Origin: Bdellovibrionales bacterium
GTDB lineage: Bacteria; Bdellovibrionota; Bdellovibrionia; Bdellovibrionales; UBA1609
Assembly (NCBI GenBank): GCA_965261545.1
Contig: CBDHDF010000011.1
Location: forward strand, 544,001 to 608,000
DNA: 64,000 nucleotides
Direction: 5' to 3'
Shown here in pieces: positions 483-13,153 of this stretch (within the stretch, counting starts at the first letter, position 1; every line of letters begins with the position of its first letter). A model generated the notes under the pieces. That model was not told the origin of the DNA. It saw only the letters and a list, made by a program, of their open reading frames with translations, and searched no databases. The position numbers and the translations under genes were made by a program.

Positions 483-1235
483 CTATTTTAGGGAAAAGTC
501 CTGGTCAAGTTTTGTTCCCTGGATTTTTCGATAACTCTCTCCTTTAAGTAAAATTTTTATGGCGGTATGCTTCAAACGGTCGATGATAGTATCTGCCAGC
601 ACCTCATCATCAATAATTTCTGACCAATGCGTTATTGGCAGTTGAGTGGTAATAACGGTGGACCTATCGGAACGAAACTTTAAAATATCGCAGAAGTCTG
701 TGGATTCACTTTGGGAGAACTTCCTTAATCCAAAGTCATCAAAAATTAACACTTGGGGGCGGCCCAGACGACGCAAGTAGTTCAAATACCTTCCTGAGTG
801 CCTTTCCAGGGCCAAGGTTTCTAGAAATATGTTGATGTCTATAAACAGTGTGGAGATTCTGGATTGACAACACTGGTGTCCCAGGCTCTGGGCCAAGAAG
901 GTTTTACCCACCCCCGTTGGCCCTTCGACAATGATAGACCTTTGCTCCTTAACCCATGATAAAGTTTGAAGCCTATCCACCTCTCTTTTACTAATAGACC
1001 TTTTGGCATGGTGGTCAAATGCCTCACCTCTGACCTTGTGAGGCAGCTTTGAGGTCTTGAGAAGTCTTTGGCTGAATTGGATTTTCCGAGCCTCCACTTC
1101 TGCAAATAACAGCTCGTTCAATAGATCCAATGCTTGAGTCTTGTGGCTTGTGTTATCCAGCGCCACTTCAAGGCTGTCTAACATTCCATAGAGCTTCAAC
1201 TCATGCATGTGGTTTTTGATTTGTACTTCATCCAT
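483..1235 (-). CDS. istB: IS21 helper ATPase IstB
   Basis: Walker A GPTGVGKT, Walker B LIFDDFG, C-terminal LADTIIDRL..GESYR; lies downstream of istA. Confidence 0.95.
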   Translation of the reverse strand: MDEVQIKNHMHELKLYGMLDSLEVALDNTSHKTQALDLLNELLFAEVEARKIQFSQRLLKTSKLPHKVRGEAFDHHAKRSISKREVDRLQTLSWVKEQRSIIVEGPTGVGKTFLAQSLGHQCCQSRISTLFIDINIFLETLALERHSGRYLNYLRRLGRPQVLIFDDFGLRKFSQSESTDFCDILKFRSDRSTVITTQLPITHWSEIIDDEVLADTIIDRLKHTAIKILLKGESYRKIQGTKLDQDFSLK

Positions 1236-2749
1236 CTGGCACCTCCTTGGGGCTTTGGTTATTTGGATTTTCGTTATGTCGCAAATAAGGGTTGCCTTGT
1301 TTACGATCTATTTTCTCGTTCACCTTTTTTATTTTTTGCCCTTTATAGAAATGGAGTTGTTGCTGAAAATATCTAACCCTCCTTTTCTCCCACTGCTTGC
1401 AGTCCTCAAGGGCTTTGATAATGAGAGGAAGGACTTTTCCTTGCCCTCTTTCTGGATTTCTTTGTGACAGGAGCTTACAAAGCCCTAGCTCTTCTGAGAT
1501 TTTCAATGGTCCCACCCTGAAAAAGCTCCTCAATGAAGTTTTCAAGCTCTTTACAAATCATACTTGCTTGAATAAGAATGTTCTGGGGAGTGGCCTCCTT
1601 GTAGGCGCGACTGGGCTCCGGGAGGTGTTCGTTTTTGGTGATGTACTCTCCGAGTTTACCTTTGGTCCTCTTGTGGCGAGCGAGGAGCTGTTTTTGAAAG
1701 TAAATCTCCACACTCTCCACTCCAATTTTTACATCTACATACTCCCCTCGGTGCTGAAACGGAGCCGAGTAGAAGTTGGATTCAACGCTCACATGACAGT
1801 CTTGGTGGAGTTTTTTCTTCTCCCAACGTCCCCACCGGTAGGGAAAAGAAGGCAAGGGTTTTAAAGTTTTTACCTCTCGTTGAAATTTTTCATTGCGAGA
1901 GACCTTAAATCTTGTGTGAGGGCGAGCATTTATCTTCTCGCACACCTCCCTTAAAGCCTTATTAATTTGATCCAGACTGGTGAAGGTCTCTCGTCTGTAC
2001 ATAAACCTGAGGGCCCTTGTAACGAGCTTCACGGCATTCTCAGTAAGGCTTTTATCCTGGGGACGACGAACTCGAGCGGGAACAGCCACCGTGTCATAGT
2101 GTTCCAAAAGCTCTTGGTAGGATTTATTCAACTCTGGATCATACAAATGGGGTGTGTTCACTCCAGTCTTTAAATTATCAGGAACAACCACTCTCGGAAC
2201 CCCACCGTAATATTCAAACATCAGAACGTGAGCGTGAAGAAAATCTTCACTAGATTCGCTCAAAGAGCCATAAGCAAAAATACGCTGAGAGAAACATAGA
2301 TTTGAGCAAAATATATGGGCCTTATGAATATTAAGGTCTTCATCGATCCACTCTGGCTGAAATCCTGCGTAATCAACCTCAACTTGGTGGCCTGGCTGAA
2401 AATCACGCAAGGTAATAATCCTTTTGCCAGCTTTTGGAAATTGCTTATGAAACTCCCTCGTAAACTGGGGGTAGCTAATGACCTTCAGAAATTTTTCCTC
2501 CCAAACGTCACTTAAACAATGCCTATCCTCAATCTCCTTCTCAATAATCTTCCAATCTATACCGTAAGACCAAGGGGGAATTTCTCTTTGGGTCTTCCAA
2601 TCCTTGGGGTCTGTTAAAAGACCACGTCTTATCTTTCTAAGAGTCTTGGTGCAGCATTTCATGCGGCGACTGATTTCTCGGTCGGGAATATTTGCCTTTA
2701 TTAATGATTTTATTTTTGTGTAACGCTCATGATCCATCTTTGTTCTCAT
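1228..2749 (-). pseudogene. istA: IS21 transposase IstA with frameshifted C-terminus
   Basis: rve/DDE motifs (VEVDYAG, VVPDNLKTGV, RPQDKSLTE). ATG at 2749 follows AGGAGG. Main frame stops at 1475; residual coding in another frame runs to 1228 and overlaps the istB start. Confidence 0.8.
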
Positions 2750-3545
2750 TTCGACCTCCTTGGTTAAAGATTGGAGGTCTTTATAGAACATCAATGACGC
2801 TATGCTAAGGGGAATCAGTCATGCCAATCAGTGCGGGCAATGCCATGGTTCGCCGGGCGAACTGAGATAAGATAGGGGGTTAGAGTCCCCCGAGAGGAAG
2901 GTCAACCGACCACTTCTCTCCCCAAGCCGTGCGCTGTCGGCCGTGAGGCCGAAGCGATGTATCGGTAGGGGTGTGTGTGGGCCAAATAATTGAGCGTCGA
3001 AAATGCCGAACTCTGGAGTGCGGAGGCTGTCATGGTAGCCGAACGCAACATACCCACCAGCGCTATGGTGAGTTGGTGGGTGACTCCACGGCGTCGTAGA
3101 AACTGGCACATACATGAATCTTATCTCGGGACCTCGGGAGGTCTTTATTTAACCCCGTCATGTGCGACGGGCGACATGGGAAAGGAGGTAACCGTAACCC
3201 ATGAACGAAATAAAGAAATCGGATCCACTCATAGTAGCGATGAAGAGGACGAACAAAGGGCCTACAAGCCCAGCGGAGTCCTTGGAGCGAAGGGGTGGAA
3301 CTGAAGGGAACTCAATCCGTCAAAGCATCTGCCGAACACAGAGTTGGGAAAAGGTGTCACAGGCGACGGAGCGAGTCCGTATAGCAGCAAAGAGAAAGGA
3401 TGGTAAGCTCACTTGCTTGCTTCACCATGTATCTGTGGAAGCCCTCCACTTGGCTTACCTCTATTTGAATAGGGGAGCCAGTGCGGGAGTGGACCATTTA
3501 ACATGGAAGGAGTATGGCGAGAACCTCGTGCAAAACCTGTTCGAT

Positions 3546-5180
3546 TTACATCGTCGGGTCCACACTACTCCCCGGACACAATGGCAAACTTTTGGAGGTT
3601 GGCACAACGTGTCGAACTACAATTTCACTTGCCTTAATGTTCACCTCAACCTCCTTCACCAGTAGCCTTACAATCTCCTTTTTTTGCTCAAAACTCAATA
3701 CCTTTAAATTGGCACTCACTTTTTTTTGGAATTCTTGGAGTTGATCTACAAGCTGTAGTTGTTGTCCTTCTTGCCTTTGCTCATACTCTAAAGATTGCTT
3801 TTCATTTTCAAGTTGCTTTATTTTTCCTCTTATTTTTTTTAATCGTGACTCTATTTCTGATAGATTTAGAGTTCCATTTTGATAAAGATCCAAGAGACGT
3901 TCCTTTTCATGTGTTATTTGACGAATCTCCTGAGCCTTTTTTACAATTAATTTTTCCAATGATTGTTGTTCACCTTTTTGCTCATGAATTCTACTTGTAT
4001 ACTCATCTATAACTGTCTGAGGATTTTCAAGTAATTTAACTGTTTGTTCCCAAACTAAGTCATCTAAAACTTCAACTCTTACGGGATGAGATGAGCAAAC
4101 TCTACCTTTAGCTGGCCACCTATAACCATCTTGTCCCATGCAGCGATAATAACAAAGCTTATACCTTGAGTGAGAAGCAGGTTTGCCATAGATCGAATAA
4201 CCACACTCTTTGCATCGTAAAAGACCACTTAACAAATACTCATATTTTTTATTATTCCGAGAGGAAAGTTTTTTGTTAGCTTCCAATTGGCTGGACGCAT
4301 CTTGAAAAGTTTTTGAAGAAATTATAGATGGAACGGGAATATATATCCAATCCTTTTTATTTCGATTGGAAGAACTTGATTTATGTTTTTTTGGATAAAA
4401 ATTATTGTCTCTTGCGAACTTGGTTGGACGCAACCTTTCTACCTTGATAGTCTTTCTAAAAGCAGCTTGTCCATAATAAGCGGGATTTTTAAGCATACAC
4501 AAGATAGTTGAACGCCCCCAAATACCTTGTTGTCTTCTAGTAGGCACCCCCCTTATATTTAATTCCTTTGCAATTGCTCTAATACTTAGTTTGTTTCGGC
4601 AATACATTTGAAAAATATTTTTAACAACTTTAGACTCTTCTGGATGGATTTCATATCGTGCGTCAGCGGAGTCTGTTTTCAGAATATATATATAACCATA
4701 GGGGGCTCCACATAAAACGCTAACAAAGCCCTTAGAAGCCTTTTGAAGTTTACCCCTTCGACTTCTTTCCATAATTTTTTCTCTTTCATATTCTGAAATG
4801 ACTCCTTGTATTTGTAGCAAAAGCTGATCTTCGGGTGAATTTGTAATATCTCTATTAGAAAAAATAATTTCAACACCTAGCCTCTGAAATTCTTCAATTA
4901 GAATCAATTGATGGGCATATTTACGAGCTAATCTGTCTGGACATAACACAAGTACCTTTGTAACCTCCCCAGAAAAAGCTTTGTCGCGAAGAGAGTCTAA
5001 AGCAGGACGAACAAGGGTGGCGCCACTCACACCATTATCCATAAATATAAGATCCTCCTCTACACAAAAATTGTGTTCCTTAGCGAAATCGTGAAGACTA
5101 GAAATCTGTGAATCAATGGTTCCCTCTTGAGCTTGTTTATCTGAGGACACTCGACAATAAAGAGCTACTGATGTTTCCAT
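3546..5180 (-). CDS. Large serine recombinase (resolvase + recombinase + zinc ribbon + coiled coil)
   Basis: YCRVSS catalytic motif, DRLAR, EYEREKIMER, PYGY, LLSGLLRCKECG, YYRC. The stop codon lies outside the element, in intron DNA. Confidence 0.95.
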   Translation of the reverse strand: METSVALYCRVSSDKQAQEGTIDSQISSLHDFAKEHNFCVEEDLIFMDNGVSGATLVRPALDSLRDKAFSGEVTKVLVLCPDRLARKYAHQLILIEEFQRLGVEIIFSNRDITNSPEDQLLLQIQGVISEYEREKIMERSRRGKLQKASKGFVSVLCGAPYGYIYILKTDSADARYEIHPEESKVVKNIFQMYCRNKLSIRAIAKELNIRGVPTRRQQGIWGRSTILCMLKNPAYYGQAAFRKTIKVERLRPTKFARDNNFYPKKHKSSSSNRNKKDWIYIPVPSIISSKTFQDASSQLEANKKLSSRNNKKYEYLLSGLLRCKECGYSIYGKPASHSRYKLCYYRCMGQDGYRWPAKGRVCSSHPVRVEVLDDLVWEQTVKLLENPQTVIDEYTSRIHEQKGEQQSLEKLIVKKAQEIRQITHEKERLLDLYQNGTLNLSEIESRLKKIRGKIKQLENEKQSLEYEQRQEGQQLQLVDQLQEFQKKVSANLKVLSFEQKKEIVRLLVKEVEVNIKASEIVVRHVVPTSKSLPLCPGSSVDPTM

Positions 5181-5505
5181 TTTTAACCTCCATTATTTTC
5201 TGTTGTTTTACTTTCTGCTTTAATTGTTTCTTTATTTTTGGAACAACAACTTCGTATGTCTGTTGAATCCGTGTGGTTTGGTCGCTTTGATAGACACTTT
5301 TTAGCTGAGCTGTCCATGGATTTTGATGTTTTGTTTGGTGGGCCATTATCATTCCTTTGACTATGGTTCGAAGCTAAATGGGAAGAATCCTCAGGTGGAT
5401 GCCAACGATAGTGAGCATATTTACGACCACTTGCATAAAGTGAATGATTATATATATTTATGGAAATTTCAATGGAAAAGTTGTCTATTGTGTCCGAGGA
5501 GTAAC
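3564..5505 (-). mobile_element. Minimal large-serine-recombinase integrative element (1,940 bp)
   Basis: AC core at 3564-3565 and 5504-5505. 28-bp inverted arms (TACTCCCCGGACACAATGGCAAACTTTT / reverse complement TACTCCTCGGACACAATAGACAACTTTT). Precise removal restores the RT frame. More AT-rich than the host intron. Confidence 0.92.
5137..5352 (-). CDS. Small hypothetical protein overlapping the LSR start
   Basis: 71-aa ORF overlapping the LSR ATG, an arrangement consistent with translational coupling. It resembles from memory small ORFs found upstream of similar recombinases; not verified. Confidence 0.5.
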   Translation of the reverse strand: MIMAHQTKHQNPWTAQLKSVYQSDQTTRIQQTYEVVVPKIKKQLKQKVKQQKIMEVKNGNISSSLLSSVLR

Positions 5506-6697
5506 GGGTGCTTACAAAGGGCAACCTGTCTTGCGGGTAGAAATACCCAAGTCAGACGGGGGCACAAGACCCTTGGGTGTCCTGGCCTTGGAGGACAAGA
5601 TTGTCCAGAAGGCCGTTGTAGACAGCATCCTCTCTCCCATCTACGAGGAACATTTCCTCGGTTATAGCTACGGATTCCGTCCAGGGCGTGGAGCGCATAA
5701 TGCGTTGGATGCTCTGGCTTACGGAATAGAGCGTAGAAAGATCAGCTACATATTGGATGCGGATATAAAATCCTACTTCGATAGCGTGGATAGAAAGACT
5801 CTAATTCGCTTTCTAAAACACCTCATCGGAGATGAGAGACTCATTCGTCTCTTTGAAAAGTGGCTCAAGTGCGGAGTGCTATCTCAAGGCGTCTTAGAAG
5901 ACACAGGGAGAGGGACCGTTCAAGGTTCAAATATTTCCCCTATCTTCGCCAACATATATTTACATTATGTGTTGGATTTATGGATGCAGAAATGGCGCAA
6001 GGACCATGCCACAGGGGACATGATATTTGTTCGCTACGCCGATGACTTTGTCGTAGGCTTTCAATACAAGGGGGAAGCTGAACGCTTCCTCAATGATCTG
6101 AAGCGCAGGCTTAAGGAGTTTTCTCTAGAAATACATCCGGGGAAAACTCGCCTCATAGAGTTCGGTCGATTTGCAAATGCAAATTGCCGCCGACGAGGTC
6201 TTGGTCACTCCGAGACTTTTGATTTCTTAGGATTCACTCACTTTTGTGTGCGCACGAGGAAAGGAGGCTTTAGGATAGGGCGTAAACCCATATCCAAGAG
6301 AGTCTGCCGGACCTTACAGCACCTGAAGCTGAGTCTGAGAAAACGAGTCTACACGAGGGACCTAGCGGAATGTGCAAAGTGGTTGGGTTTGGTCATCAAA
6401 GGCTGGCTCAATTATTTTGCGGTTCCAGGAAGTACGGTGTACCTACGAAAATTTATTTGCGCAATCAGGAGTGCTTGGATGAAAGCCATCCGACGACGCT
6501 CACAGCGTGGACGGAGATTCTCGTGGAAGAGGTTGGATAGAATGATTCGTCTATTCTGGCCTCGTATATCCATACGCCACCCGTGGCCAACAGATAGGTT
6601 CGCTATGCGGTACCACCTGAAGTAGGAGCCGGATGCTTTAACGAGCACGTCCGGATCTGTGCGGGGGGTGCGTGGCAACACGCATTCCTACCGTAAC

Positions 6698-6835
6698 CAA
6701 CTGGTGCGGGCAATGCCATGCAACTGGTGCGGGCAATGCCATGCAACTGGTGAGGGTAATGCCATGCAACTGGTGAGGGTAATGCCATGCAACTGGTGAG
6801 GGTAATGTCATGCAATCGGTGAGGGCAATGCCATG
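6698..6835 (+). repeat. Six tandem 23-bp IS21 terminal repeats (consensus CAACTGGTG[AC]GGG[CT]AATGCCATG); a seventh unit at 2825-2847
   Basis: Read directly. Units abut with no spacers, lie against the IS21 end and resemble the opposite end (353-400). Confidence 0.95.
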
Positions 6836-7053
6836 CAATTTTACATTCATAATGGATAGCATCCCCCTTTTTGTTGCGGGGCTCTATCAGAAATTTAGGA
6901 AGCAGATAAAGTTGCTGATGAAGATTTCAATGGAGAAGAGGAGGCACTTCAAAAGAAGCTATGAAAGGTCTATCAAAAGGGCTGGGAGTTCTTTTAAAAG
7001 AAATAGCTTAACGCAGAGGCAGAGGGGTGTGGTGGCTTAAGGAAACGGCATTG

Positions 7054-7154
7054 GTTCCTTGCCTATTGTCTTGATATCCATTTTGCCTTCTCCTTTCAGG
7101 ATGATAGTTCATCCTAATATGATTCGGCAGTTACACAAAATAGTTTACAGGCTC
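7054..7154 (-). mobile_element. Left-end fragment of an IS256 copy into which IS-A copy 1 inserted
   Basis: Near-identical to 10026-10126 and 25844-25944. Contains IRL and the first codons MDIKTIGKE. Confidence 0.9.
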
Positions 7155-8335
7155 CAAAAAAATGGAAATTCCAATCTCATCAAAGGGTTCATGTGTTTAG
7201 GTTCCCATACTATATTACCCCCTTTTTTTATTTTTTTTAACTTGGGATATTCGAGAAATACCAGCATTGGGATGAAATATGAAAAAAAATGGAAACCCAA
7301 GTCTGCACCAAGAGGGCATGTATTTAGGTTCCCATACTATATTACCCTAACCATAGTCTCGTATTCCAGCATTTCTCAACGCCTTAGAGCCCTCTTATAA
7401 GGGGACCTTATTTATTAAAAAACTTAGTTGTCAAAACGGTCACCGTATTCAATGGCAAACCTGTTCATGGCTGGCTTCCAGTTGTGTAATGGTCGTGTCC
7501 ATCGCTTAGAGGCCATTTTTATCGCTAAATATACAACTTTTAAAGCCGACCGATCACTGGGAAATATCTTACGATTTCTGATCGCCTTGCGGATCACGCT
7601 ATTTAACGACTCTATGGCGTTTGTGGTATAAAAAATCTTTCTGATTTCATCCGGATAATCGAAAATAGTGATGAGATTGTCCCAATTCCTACGCCAAGAC
7701 TTTTCAATATTCGGATACTTTGAAGACCACTTGGTACAAAATTCCTCAAGGGCCTTTTCAGCTTCTGTCAGAGTCGTAGAGCCATAAATGGACTTGAGGT
7801 CTTGGGCGACAGCTTTCATATTCTTGGAAGGAACATAGCGAAGGGAATTGCGGACCATATGGACAATGCACAGTTGTACTTTAGACTTGGGAAAAGCCGC
7901 TGAAATGGCTTGAGGAAAACCTGTAAGACCATCTACAGAAAATATAAATACGTCTTTCAACCCTCGATTTTGCAGCTCAGTCAAAACACTCAACCAAAAC
8001 TTTGAACCCTCATTTTCAGAAATCCATAGGCCCAACAAGTCTTTCTGACCCTCCTCTGTAATACCAAGAGCTAGGTAAATCGCCTTATTAATAACTCTCT
8101 TGTCTTGATGGACCTTCACCACGATACAGTCCAAAAATACGATAGGGTAAGTGCTATCCAAGGGGCGGTTCTGCCAAGCCGTAACTTCATCAATAACAGC
8201 ATCCGTCACGTTGGCTATCACTGAGTGGGATATCTCTGCACCATGGTAAAGGTCTTTGATAGCTCCTTGAATATCCCTGGTCGTCATTCCCCTCGCATAG
8301 AGGGTCAGAATACTGTCTTCAAAGCCCTCAAGACG

Positions 8336-9752
8336 CAATGCCGTTTCCTTAAGCCACCACACCCCTCTGCCTCTGCGTTAAGCTATTTCTTTTAAAAGAA
8401 CTCCCAGCGCTTTTGATAGACCTTTCATAGCTTCTTTTGAAGTGCCTCCTCTTCTCCATTGAAATCTTCATCAGCAACTTTATCTGCTTCCTAAATTTCT
8501 GATAGAGCCCCGCAACAAAAAGAGGGATGCTATCCATTATGAAATCAAGAATCAGTTTAAAGTTAGGTTTTTTGTAGTCATTTTTTACCAACTGATTCAC
8601 ACTGTCTTCATCCTCATTTATGCTCATTTGAATCTTTGTATAATTGAAGAGCCAAAAATAAGAATACAGCTCTTGCAATATTCCATTAAGGCTTGTTGAG
8701 TGCCACTGCTCCATTTTCATTGTCGATGTAAAATCACGAAATGTCGTTTCTATTTCCCAACGACGAGAGTAAAGAGCAACCATATCCTTCTTGTCCAAGG
8801 AGCCATGCGGAAGATTAGTGGCCAAAACAGAGAACTCCCCAGTCTTTGGGTTTTTATACTTATAGAGATGAATGACCACCCCCTCAATAACCATTTGTGA
8901 ATACCAACCTGGGCCATTAAATAAATTTACGATGGGGATAAAAGTAGAGCCTCGCTTACAACGCGCAATAAAGAAGTTACTGGCTTGAGCATGGGCCTTA
9001 ATAATCTCTGTAGATAAATAAAGCCTATCGTAGAGAGTTATGCTATTACTCTCAAAACTACCTATCATTTGAATAGCATTGGCGATTTCGTTGAGAGCGG
9101 GAGAAAAGCAAAGATTCTTTGTCACACCCGATAAAACGTCATAAGCATGAGATAGATACATACGTAAGAAATGAGTTTCCATCTCATTTGGGCAAGGGTA
9201 CCCACAATAACCCTCCTTTAAAAGATCTTTAGAGCGAGGAAGTGCTAATTGGTCGCCATCTATGGCATAGATATAAAAACCATGAAACGTTTTTCTCAAT
9301 GGTTCGTAGTCTGTAATCAGAGATTCAAAGATATCTTTGAAAAATAGGTAAGAAATACTTTGACGTATCTTGCTGAGACTGCTTTTGACTGGCATGAGAA
9401 GCAGGTCACCAAAATGAGTCCATACCGTCTTAAGAGCGATTTGGTAGCCTTCGTAATTTGTTCCGGAAATAAGATAGATAATGGTAAAAAAGAAAATTTG
9501 AGGATTAAATTTTCGATTCCTTTTTTGTTTTTCTGGATCGACAAGGTGCTCTGGCTTGAAGGAAGAATCAAGTTTTGGTAGAATAAAATGGTCATCTGTG
9601 ACGCGAACTCGTCATTTGGGGGCTTTCGAGATCAATATTGGATTGCATGTGACTTACTCCTTGGTTGAGGGTTGGGTGTAAAATAAAACAAGTCTTATTC
9701 TTGTCGATTTATCTAATGATTTCAAGAGATTTTTCTTAAGGAAACGGCATTG
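8336..9752 (-). mobile_element. IS4-family IS-A copy 2, complete (1,417 bp)
   Basis: Perfect 18-bp IR CAATGCCGTTTCCTTAAG at both ends. 10-bp TSD CCTCAAGACG at 8326-8335 and 9753-9762. Confidence 0.96.
8349..9395 (-). CDS. IS4-family transposase (true N-terminus probably further upstream)
   Basis: AIDG, YDRLY and YSRRWEIETTFR motifs. The frame stays open upstream to about 9611. Confidence 0.9.
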   Translation of the reverse strand: MPVKSSLSKIRQSISYLFFKDIFESLITDYEPLRKTFHGFYIYAIDGDQLALPRSKDLLKEGYCGYPCPNEMETHFLRMYLSHAYDVLSGVTKNLCFSPALNEIANAIQMIGSFESNSITLYDRLYLSTEIIKAHAQASNFFIARCKRGSTFIPIVNLFNGPGWYSQMVIEGVVIHLYKYKNPKTGEFSVLATNLPHGSLDKKDMVALYSRRWEIETTFRDFTSTMKMEQWHSTSLNGILQELYSYFWLFNYTKIQMSINEDEDSVNQLVKNDYKKPNFKLILDFIMDSIPLFVAGLYQKFRKQIKLLMKISMEKRRHFKRSYERSIKSAGSSFKRNSLTQRQRGVVA

Positions 9753-11006: not shown

Positions 11007-13153
11007 GTTCCTGTCCAGGGAAGAAAGTTAAGTAGTTTTAAGTATTTACATGCCTTCCCTTTAGATTTTATGCTTTAAAATGGAGTCCATCAAACATAAT
11101 CCGTGTAAATTCAGTTACTTACATAAAACGGAAAAATAAAATAAGTTCCCCCCCCCCTCTCTTGACGAACCTTTCACAGCCCCTCCCTTTCAGTGACTTA
11201 TGTGGCTATCAACTGGTTACTTGATATGAGAGGAAGAGTTGGATCAACCTGTGTTTCCACCGTGGTGATTTCAAACCTCCTTCAGGGAAATAACATTACG
11301 TTGCGCATCAACTTCAAAAAATACTTGACGTGTTTTTTCAGAGAAATAATTTTTGATATTTTATTCTTCATTTATTTTTTATGTAGGTTTTAGGAGGCGT
11401 GGGAACCTCTCTATGAGGTAGAATTCTTATCCATGTTCTCCGAGAACCTCTCTGATTTTTTTCTTCTTAAAAGACATCCTTGCTCACTTTTTTCCCTCAA
11501 AAAAACGTATGTTAATATAAAAATTAAAGAGAAACTTTCACCAAAGGGGGGACTATGCGCCATTTGAAGAAGACACAGTTGGGACTCTTTTCCCAATATC
11601 CTAACCACCAACTCAGTACAGAATTGCAGCAAATTAATAACATCATTGATCGCCATCCAGAGTTTGCCCATATGGTTCATGAAGACCTTGTTAAAGAAAA
11701 GAAAGATTCTGGTGATATTGGTATGACATCGGAGCAAGTTCTCAAGGTGGCTATTCTTAAATCCATAAGAGGTCTTTCCTATCGTGCGTTAGCCTTTAAT
11801 CTTGTCGATTCAGTATCCACCAGAGCTTTTCTGGGCCTTGAATTGGAAGAAAATTACGCTCACTCCACCTTACAGGACTTGATTGTTCAAATAAGTGAAG
11901 AAACTTGGGGAATTATTAGCGCCTCTTTAGTTTCAGATGCAAGAGATCAAAAGATTGAGCCGTGTAAGAAAATGAGATTGGACAGTACAGTGACGAAATC
12001 AAATATTCATCATCCAACGGATGCATCCCTTTTATATGACTGCATAAGAGTTACAGAAAGAGAATTTAAAAAAGTTCGTAAAAATGTCATGAAAGATTTT
12101 TGGCGACTTATTTCAAGAGAAGATCTTAAGAGAGCAAAAACCTTGCTTTACAAAATTAATAATTCCAAAAATGATGCGGAAAGACTACCTTGCTATAAGG
12201 AGCTTTTAAAAATCGCTACCAAATTGAACAAAGGATTACCTGATACCATCAGAAAGATAAAAAAAGAACAAAAATGTGTGAAGATGAATGCTTTGAAAAA
12301 GAGTCTAAAACAGTTAGAAAATGTTGCCTTCTACCTGGAAAAAATCATCTTTCAAACTCAAAAAAGAGTTATTGAGGGGAAAAAAGTATCTTCTGAAAAA
12401 AAGGTCCTATCCATCTTTGAACCGCATACAGACATTATTGTAAAGGGGCAAAGAGAAGTCGAGTTTGGGCATAAAATCTTTTTGACCTCAGGGCAAAGCA
12501 ACATGATTTTAGATTGTCAGATCCCTGATGGCAACCCCGCAGACTCTGATATGTTTTTAAAAGTTATGAATTCAGTGACACAAACCTATGGGGCTTGCCC
12601 TGTAAAAGTAAGTGCAGATGGTGGGTTTGCTTCAAAAGAAAATCTTGAAGAGGCCAAAGAGATGGGGGCTAAAGATGTTTGCTTCCCAGAAAAAAAAGGA
12701 ATGAAAATATTAAAGATGGTTAAAAGTGCTTGGGTCTTTAAAAATCTTCTCAATTGGAGAGCCGGAATAGAGGCTGTTATTTCATTCCTTAAGAGATGTT
12801 TTGGTATGAGAGTTGCTTACTGGAAAGGGCATGATGGTTTTAAGAGGTATGTAAAGAATGCCGTTTGTGCCTATAATTTTGTTGTCTTGGCAAGACATGA
12901 ATTATCAACTGTCACCTAAATTTATCCATTAGGAATAACAGCAATGGACCAGGTCGAAGGTGCTAAAATCTTCCAAAGGTAGGGGTGCGTCTTCAAATCG
13001 AAAAAACTAGGGCGCAAGTCGCTTAAAGACCTTTTTCCCCTTAATCTGTAGAGTTTGTGTGGCAAATCTCCAACTCTCACTCCCCCATTGAGGCATTGGG
13101 AGGCTCAATGGGGAGTGTCAGAGAACAAAAAATGGGCCTTTCTGGACAGAAAC
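11007..13153 (+). mobile_element. IS5/ISNCY-like insertion sequence, complete (2,147 bp)
   Basis: IRs GTTCCTGTCCAG / CTGGACAGAAAC. 6-bp TSD TATCTA at 11001-11006 and 13154-13159. Confidence 0.88.
11555..12919 (+). CDS. IS5/ISNCY-like DDE transposase
   Basis: RLDSTVTKSNIHHPTDASLL, EFGHK, SADGGF and RAGIEAVISFLKR motifs. Confidence 0.9.
   Translation: MRHLKKTQLGLFSQYPNHQLSTELQQINNIIDRHPEFAHMVHEDLVKEKKDSGDIGMTSEQVLKVAILKSIRGLSYRALAFNLVDSVSTRAFLGLELEENYAHSTLQDLIVQISEETWGIISASLVSDARDQKIEPCKKMRLDSTVTKSNIHHPTDASLLYDCIRVTEREFKKVRKNVMKDFWRLISREDLKRAKTLLYKINNSKNDAERLPCYKELLKIATKLNKGLPDTIRKIKKEQKCVKMNALKKSLKQLENVAFYLEKIIFQTQKRVIEGKKVSSEKKVLSIFEPHTDIIVKGQREVEFGHKIFLTSGQSNMILDCQIPDGNPADSDMFLKVMNSVTQTYGACPVKVSADGGFASKENLEEAKEMGAKDVCFPEKKGMKILKMVKSAWVFKNLLNWRAGIEAVISFLKRCFGMRVAYWKGHDGFKRYVKNAVCAYNFVVLARHELSTVT

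Follow-up and report, generated by a model that had tools for sequence, protein, structure and literature searches.

On a contig of a Bdellovibrionales bacterium, the reverse transcriptase (RT)/maturase gene of a group II intron is interrupted by a short insertion in which a large serine recombinase (LSR) is the only gene of recognizable family. This locus raises the question of what such an insertion is: the remnant of a prophage or ICE, a switch acting on the intron, or a mobile element in its own right. Our analysis, covering the window (the whole stretch of 64,000 nucleotides presented above), the assembly from which it comes and related loci in other genomes, leads us to consider it very likely that the insertion is an autonomous, IS-sized transposable element moved by its LSR, and a member of a widespread family that integrates into conserved codon motifs in the genes of other mobile elements. 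This reading builds on the ends, the 2-bp core, the precise empty sites, the multiple copies, the target motifs of the family and the coding signal of the tail, all of them established at the level of sequence comparison.

Anatomy of the element and its host intron

The relevant features of the window are the following.

483-2794, minus strand: istA/istB of an IS21-family element
2848-6697, plus strand: host group II intron, 1,910 bp when empty, with Rfam RF02005 at 2882-3103
3354..3563, plus strand: 5' piece of the intron RT/maturase gene (start may be further upstream, at 3201 or 3240)
3536..3593, no strand: attL (intron B arm, AC core at 3564-3565, P' arm at 3566-3593)
3546..5180, minus strand: LSR, integrated form, 544 aa, its frame crossing attL
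3564..5505, minus strand: LSR mini-element, variant A, 1,940 bp counting one AC core
5137..5352, minus strand: small conserved ORF, 69-71 aa (71 aa here), overlapping the LSR start
5393..5503, minus strand: conserved coding segment Int(C), ~35-37 codons, in the LSR frame only when the ends are joined, open to 5183
5476..5533, no strand: attR (P arm at 5476-5503, AC core at 5504-5505, intron B' arm)
5506..6625, plus strand: 3' piece of the intron RT/maturase gene (RVT_1, GIIM; TIGR04416 at 296.6 bits vs. a cutoff of 300)
6698..6846, no strand: 23-bp tandem terminal repeats of the IS21-family element hosting the intron, with one more copy at 2824-2847

Two hairpins of the domain V/VI type at ~6625-6695 mark the intron 3' end. 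The 23-bp terminal repeats of IS21 are the homing target of the intron, which uses different repeat units in different copies, and two loci carry two introns within one IS21 repeat array. An IS256-family element (7424-8362) is also seen inside an IS4-like transposase gene (window 6846-9395), with a 165-bp inverted duplication of its flank.

The coordinates and general anatomy proposed in a first-pass annotation of the window hold up. The element, with a GC content of 36% vs. 54% and 49% in the two flanking intron halves, ends in inverted arms (3566-3593 and 5476-5503) of 28 nt each that are 86% complementary; the P' arm doubles as code for the last conserved residues of the LSR. An AC dinucleotide is common to attL, attR and the empty site, corresponding to the shared central dinucleotide of LSR att sites. 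Besides the LSR, a Pfam scan of the window found no Pfam-matching gene inside the element. The proposed insertion at an H-x-G-x-Y motif of the RT is likewise borne out, as taking out 1,940 bp yields a single open RT frame across H-T-G-A-Y-K (443 aa from 3354, 494 aa from 3201). A prophage or ICE origin was rejected, there being no such genes within the element and the best viral matches reaching just 28-31%; indeed, among nine viral loci no match to the LSR exceeded 31% identity.

The same annotation had pointed out that the right arm of attB repeats attP-arm sequence 4 bp closer to the core. We confirmed this match at 10 of 14 positions (at most 39 of 20,000 shuffles were as good, p ~0.002), while the left arm agrees more weakly (7 of 11 at a shift of 3). 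A precedent for the 4-bp shift is DBD2 of the SPbeta integrase, which is placed 4 bp closer on attB (PMC11722253), and the corresponding attB shift of the LI integrase is 5 bp (PMC3783163). The inner attB arms of the window site agree with attP at 2-4 of 7 positions, below the usual half of the family, and no clear single peak of a zinc-domain shift emerged across 32 family arms.

The LSR combines PF00239 (residues 5-151), PF07508 (180-301) and PF13408 (316-379), all hit above Pfam cutoffs, with a coiled coil at ~387-487, i.e., resolvase, recombinase, zinc-ribbon and coiled coil in the order that characterizes large serine recombinases. It keeps the invariant S12 and the four Cys residues and has long helices at 408-487; its structure model matches the SPbeta integrase (Foldseek E 3e-21), and it covers the aligned part of the LI integrase (profile 285-519 to chain 105-317 of 328). 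Since every domain known from the LI and SPbeta integrases is retained, the integrated form is probably active. Just three Pfam families were hit, with no match to DUF4368. Curated family models remained below their cutoffs: CcrB (139 of 900), CcrC (103 of 900), XisF (106 of 375) and the IS607 family model NF033518 (41 bits vs. 110). The small ORF reaches no Pfam family at cutoff and no Atlas hit above 0.80, and its structure model is a low-information single helix (pTM 0.30). It is present by motif in 25 of 27 elements and visible in the remaining two, and is a candidate directionality factor or regulator.

Copies in the same genome

The assembly contains four uninterrupted copies of the host intron (99.95% identity), along with five whole element copies and one interrupted copy of variant A in this intron. 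Exact junction counts are four for attB, five for attL, six for attR and zero for attP. Both att sites can be read from the sequence, as the first-pass annotation had held; the attB it predicted occurs exactly four times in the genome and is exact because four empty and five whole filled copies of the intron are available for comparison. The empty joint was found in contigs of four out of four runs, all from one sample that is possibly the source sample; the attP joint was absent among the same contigs, which show presence rather than absence, and no RNA dataset is listed as a holder. Filled introns occur at two or more insertion points, four of them sharing one IS21 insertion point, and filled and empty states both occur on both alleles of an intron SNP. 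This pattern is compatible with repeated insertion, with spread of a filled intron, or with gene conversion. All six right ends of variant A lie at one site of one intron, and one left end lies elsewhere, at an unrelated site that belongs to a repeat of a different IS and likewise has an AC core.

A sister element, variant B (97% DNA and 95% protein identity to variant A), is represented by two whole, one interrupted and two partial copies. Six of its eight mapped ends lie at a G-T-P-Q-G-x-x-x-S-P motif in the RTs of three further introns, for which empty sites exist in the genome as well, and the remaining two in a hydantoinase/oxoprolinase gene. Taken together, insertions of the two variants affect four distinct RT genes, one hydantoinase gene and one IS repeat. 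At each of two variant B copies (G000:C7:146915 and C10:793053), one flank is half of an RT site and the other is half of the hydantoinase site, the hydantoinase/oxoprolinase gene being split between two contigs at these copies; judging from the sequences, this apparent swap of flanks likely reflects a rearrangement between element copies.

The genome also harbors a second, distant LSR element (G000:C11:176683-179134, ~2.45 kb) encoding a 687-aa LSR with 23% identity. It sits at one motif of a multi-copy ISNCY transposase, an intact gene for which is found in the window at 11555-12919, and its eight full-length LSR copies compare with 46 intact copies of the host motif. A search for relatives of the host gave no match at E 1e-80 in any of 60 other genomes.

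A family that targets conserved codon motifs

An RT hit was found near the LSR in 31 of 101 related loci, many of the other 70 having flanks too short to judge. The break falls at RT residues ~209-217, the GTPQG-SP motif, in 30 of these 31 loci and in either orientation, the remaining RT being unbroken. The idea that homologues share the codon used in the window (RT residue 71) finds no support in this count, with 0 of 31 RT-flanked loci broken there. The GTPQG-SP motif is present on at least one side, in both orientations, in 18 of 25 elements with 41-61% identity and both ends mapped; seven lie elsewhere. The core usually coincides with the first two bases of the hydrophobic codon preceding S-P. 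The tails of homologous proteins (n = 119, 91 scorable) give a similar picture: 66 score as GTPQG-SP flanks at a 1% shuffle threshold, while 25 are unassigned, 18 too short and 10 without an anchor.

The targets extend beyond introns. A more distant group (35-38% identity) uses one motif of IS5-type transposases, IS5 models matching four of its five scanned flanks and the fifth, of 69 aa, matching nothing, and single cases were seen in IS1182, Tn3, ISH3-like, IS630 and IS3 transposases and in a plasmid Rep protein. These cases, as well as the copies in the own genome within the hydantoinase/oxoprolinase gene and an IS repeat, speak against a specificity for group II introns. What survives of the original description as an IS-like hyperparasite of such introns is an IS-sized, LSR-driven parasite of other mobile elements with a wider target range.

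Family members are ~1.85-2.25 kb long and consist of the LSR and the small ORF, sometimes with a ribbon-helix-helix gene; in the longer (2.2-kb) rhizobial elements this extra gene lies upstream of the small ORF (L099:3579-3854, L113:2022-2351). Among the hosts that carry names are Bradyrhizobium, Mesorhizobium, Pseudomonas, Streptomyces and Acaryochloris plasmids. Several junctions depart from strict integrase chemistry in that the cores are unequal or one base is added. Some distant relatives (L003, L005, L077 and L084) are in palindromic, REP-like flanks instead of genes. At L022, L028 and L036 both flanks resemble RT 3' halves in opposite orientation, as would result from a chimera assembled across a repeated element or from copies having recombined.

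Retargeting or decay of variant A

How the window copy came to occupy a site used by none of its RT-flanked relatives is best explained, on present sequence evidence, by retargeting: variant A would be a recently derived variant that moved from the GTPQG-SP site of the family to a new RT site. In a quick tree (without L026, L033 and L101, which were dropped for frameshifts, and with no full-length TnpX/TndX included) variants A and B come out as sisters within the clade that targets GTPQG. The two differ by 28 non-synonymous and 18 synonymous codon differences out of 538. Eight changes in variant A affect positions where 16-25 of 28 homologues agree, all of them in the recombinase or zinc domain, vs. 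just two changes at such conserved residues in variant B. The clustering of the eight has a binomial p of 0.0005, but for a set that was picked post hoc and domains that are rich in conserved sites. A plain domain contrast gave no significant excess of amino-acid change in the DNA-binding domains of variant A (Fisher p 0.13), nor was positive selection on variant A shown. We infer that the changes in these domains may have caused the move to the new target.

A live alternative, which we regard as rather less plausible, is that variant A is a decaying passenger. A single insertion at a look-alike site would then have spread with the intron (by retrohoming in trans), with IS21 or by gene conversion, and the changes at conserved residues would represent damage. 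Such a history would accommodate the confinement of all six right ends to one site in one intron, the common IS21 insertion point of four filled introns, and the very fact that the eight changes strike well-conserved positions. It fits less well with the intact frame of variant A, with 18 synonymous differences from variant B and none that is disabling, with the clustering of the changes in DNA-binding domains, with the left end found at an additional, unrelated site likewise bearing an AC core, and with the 4-bp-shifted match of the new right attB arm to attP. Variants A and B, 28 residues apart and using different att sites, offer a natural pair for studying how LSR specificity changes.

An LSR gene split at the attachment site

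The attP site lies within the LSR gene. Because the LSR frame runs over attL, the last residues of the integrated protein are read from intron DNA, and homologous LSRs end in the same manner, with a conserved stretch followed by a target-read tail. When the element ends are joined, the LSR frame continues through Int(C) and is open for at least 30 codons in 34 of 35 elements, vs. 12 of 70 for the other two frames (just 1 of 50 in the closer clade). The first ~35 codons of this tail are conserved without gaps or indels. Beyond the att arm, pN/pS is 0.58 with no in-frame stops in 19 elements, vs. 0.79-1.33 and 15-37 stops in the other five frames, these codon counts overstating independence because the compared elements are related. 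The ratio is 0.36 in a less saturated subset of 10 elements and 0.49 in nine IS5-targeting elements, and the constraint at 0.58 is weaker than in the LSR body (0.30). Variation of the tail is codon-periodic (entropy of 1.16, 0.87 and 1.46 by codon position). This coding signal argues that the tail added to the LSR on joining of the ends would be a genuine coding segment. It may also control the direction of recombination; a C-terminal element of the SPbeta integrase SprA has been linked to directionality (PMC11722253).

A natural long form, with the tail fused to the LSR, was seen in none of 119 homologues and none of 27 hits of one profile search, and 36 further profile hits included no LSR-sized protein except a repeat-like one of 643 aa. 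These searches used proteins clustered at 50-90% identity, which could hide long forms behind integrated ones. The lack of a fused protein would be expected if the segment beyond attR were not part of the LSR at all, serving instead as a DNA or RNA element (a promoter or an accessory binding site) or as a separate peptide, with the in-frame join as a by-product. A sigma-70-like match inside the segment (5472-5444, minus strand, 9 of 12; 10 such sites vs. 5.4 expected) points the same way, and the integrated LSR may already be complete, because it spans the aligned part of the LI integrase. We nevertheless judge this explanation unlikely in view of the codon-periodic variation and the freedom from indels and stops in 19 elements, of the same frame being open in a second, distant clade, and of the lack of a common start codon for a separate peptide, the sequence upstream of the segment being whichever target was hit.

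Intron mobility and a proposed mechanism

The first-pass annotation had further suggested a reversible switch on intron mobility, whereby excision of the element would be a regulated restoration of the maturase. Precise restoration of the RT frame upon excision and the coexistence of filled and empty alleles would suit such a role; we nevertheless hold it to be quite improbable, as the assembly contains no attP, RT might come in trans from the four copies of this intron that are intact, the empty copies may never have been filled, and intron control is not the specialty of the family, because transposase genes and a metabolic gene are also hit.

Under the preferred reading of an autonomous element, and following the chemistry of serine integrases, recombination of attL with attR would excise a 1,940-bp circle, and recombination of attP with attB would reintegrate it at motif-bearing sites. 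Because the crossover lies inside the LSR gene, the integrated and circular forms encode different LSR ends: the integrated copy would make a short LSR ending in a few target-derived residues, and the circle an LSR with the conserved extra segment. This difference could most simply serve to control direction, and the small ORF might then act as a directionality factor. Conserved motifs in other mobile elements would provide many near-neutral landing sites travelling between cells. The intron is, on this reading, a host and not a beneficiary. A fully specified version, in which a direction switch is built into the gene structure (the long integrase of the circle integrating, the integrated short form together with the small ORF excising) and variants A and B represent a natural retargeting between RT motifs, is put forward tentatively, as a possibility that we would not favor outright.

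Relation to known systems

TnpX and TndX use a circular intermediate. The present element resembles the transposons Tn4451/Tn4453 (TnpX) and Tn5397 (TndX), as well as the multi-targeting LSR clade of Durrant et al. 2022 (PMC10083194), in being a non-phage element that an LSR delivers to several related sites via a 2-bp core; like them, variants A and B use multiple targets. It differs from them in lacking DUF4368, a domain reported in 63% of the multi-targeting clade (PMC10083194), in carrying no cargo or mobilization genes, and in having codon motifs in RT and transposase genes as targets. The terms reverse transcriptase, group II intron and maturase do not occur in the available main text of PMC10083194, and reverse transcriptase is likewise absent from its supplements as searched by term, the files of which may be incomplete.

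With the large serine integrases of phages (SPbeta SprA, LI/A118, phiC31, Bxb1) the LSR shares domain order and fold, a near-palindromic attP and, putatively, an inward-shifted outer motif in one attB arm; unlike them, it is accompanied by no phage genes, enters several targets in both orientations, and has its crossover inside the integrase gene. The latter feature, attP within the integrase gene and a split on integration, recalls the archaeal suicidal integrases (SSV1, pTN3, pT26-2; PMC8371274). However, those enzymes belong to the tyrosine recombinases and are described by Badel et al. 2021 as exclusive to archaea, and their split separates the catalytic part (PMC8371274), whereas here a bacterial serine recombinase keeps all known domains in the long piece and loses only ~35 conserved residues. 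Helper-embedded PICIs (PMC10111431) are alike in that their integrase clade has time and again made targets of genes belonging to other mobile elements, which it does not restore, but they are larger satellites in prophage late genes, and the words "serine" and "intron" are absent from the available text of that source. Members of the IS607 family have a short serine transposase with an N-terminal DNA-binding domain and no terminal inverted repeats (PMC6188088), in contrast to the 28-bp inverted ends of the window element.

A search of the full-text literature by title and abstract start, with most subscription journals outside its scope, found no published description of the family, and the available text of PMC4048246, PMC4853749 and PMC12884075 held nothing relevant to it. 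The element defines a minimal class of mobile elements that occupy, as their niche, conserved coding motifs belonging to others. Should the tail prove important, it would amount to a novel means of controlling the direction of an integrase, paralleled in the archaeal suicidal integrases; all database proteins examined are the integrated form, and mining of these LSRs would therefore yield clones without the conserved tail. Overall, the element works like transposons of the TnpX/TndX type and shares its gene architecture with the suicidal integrases without being one of them.
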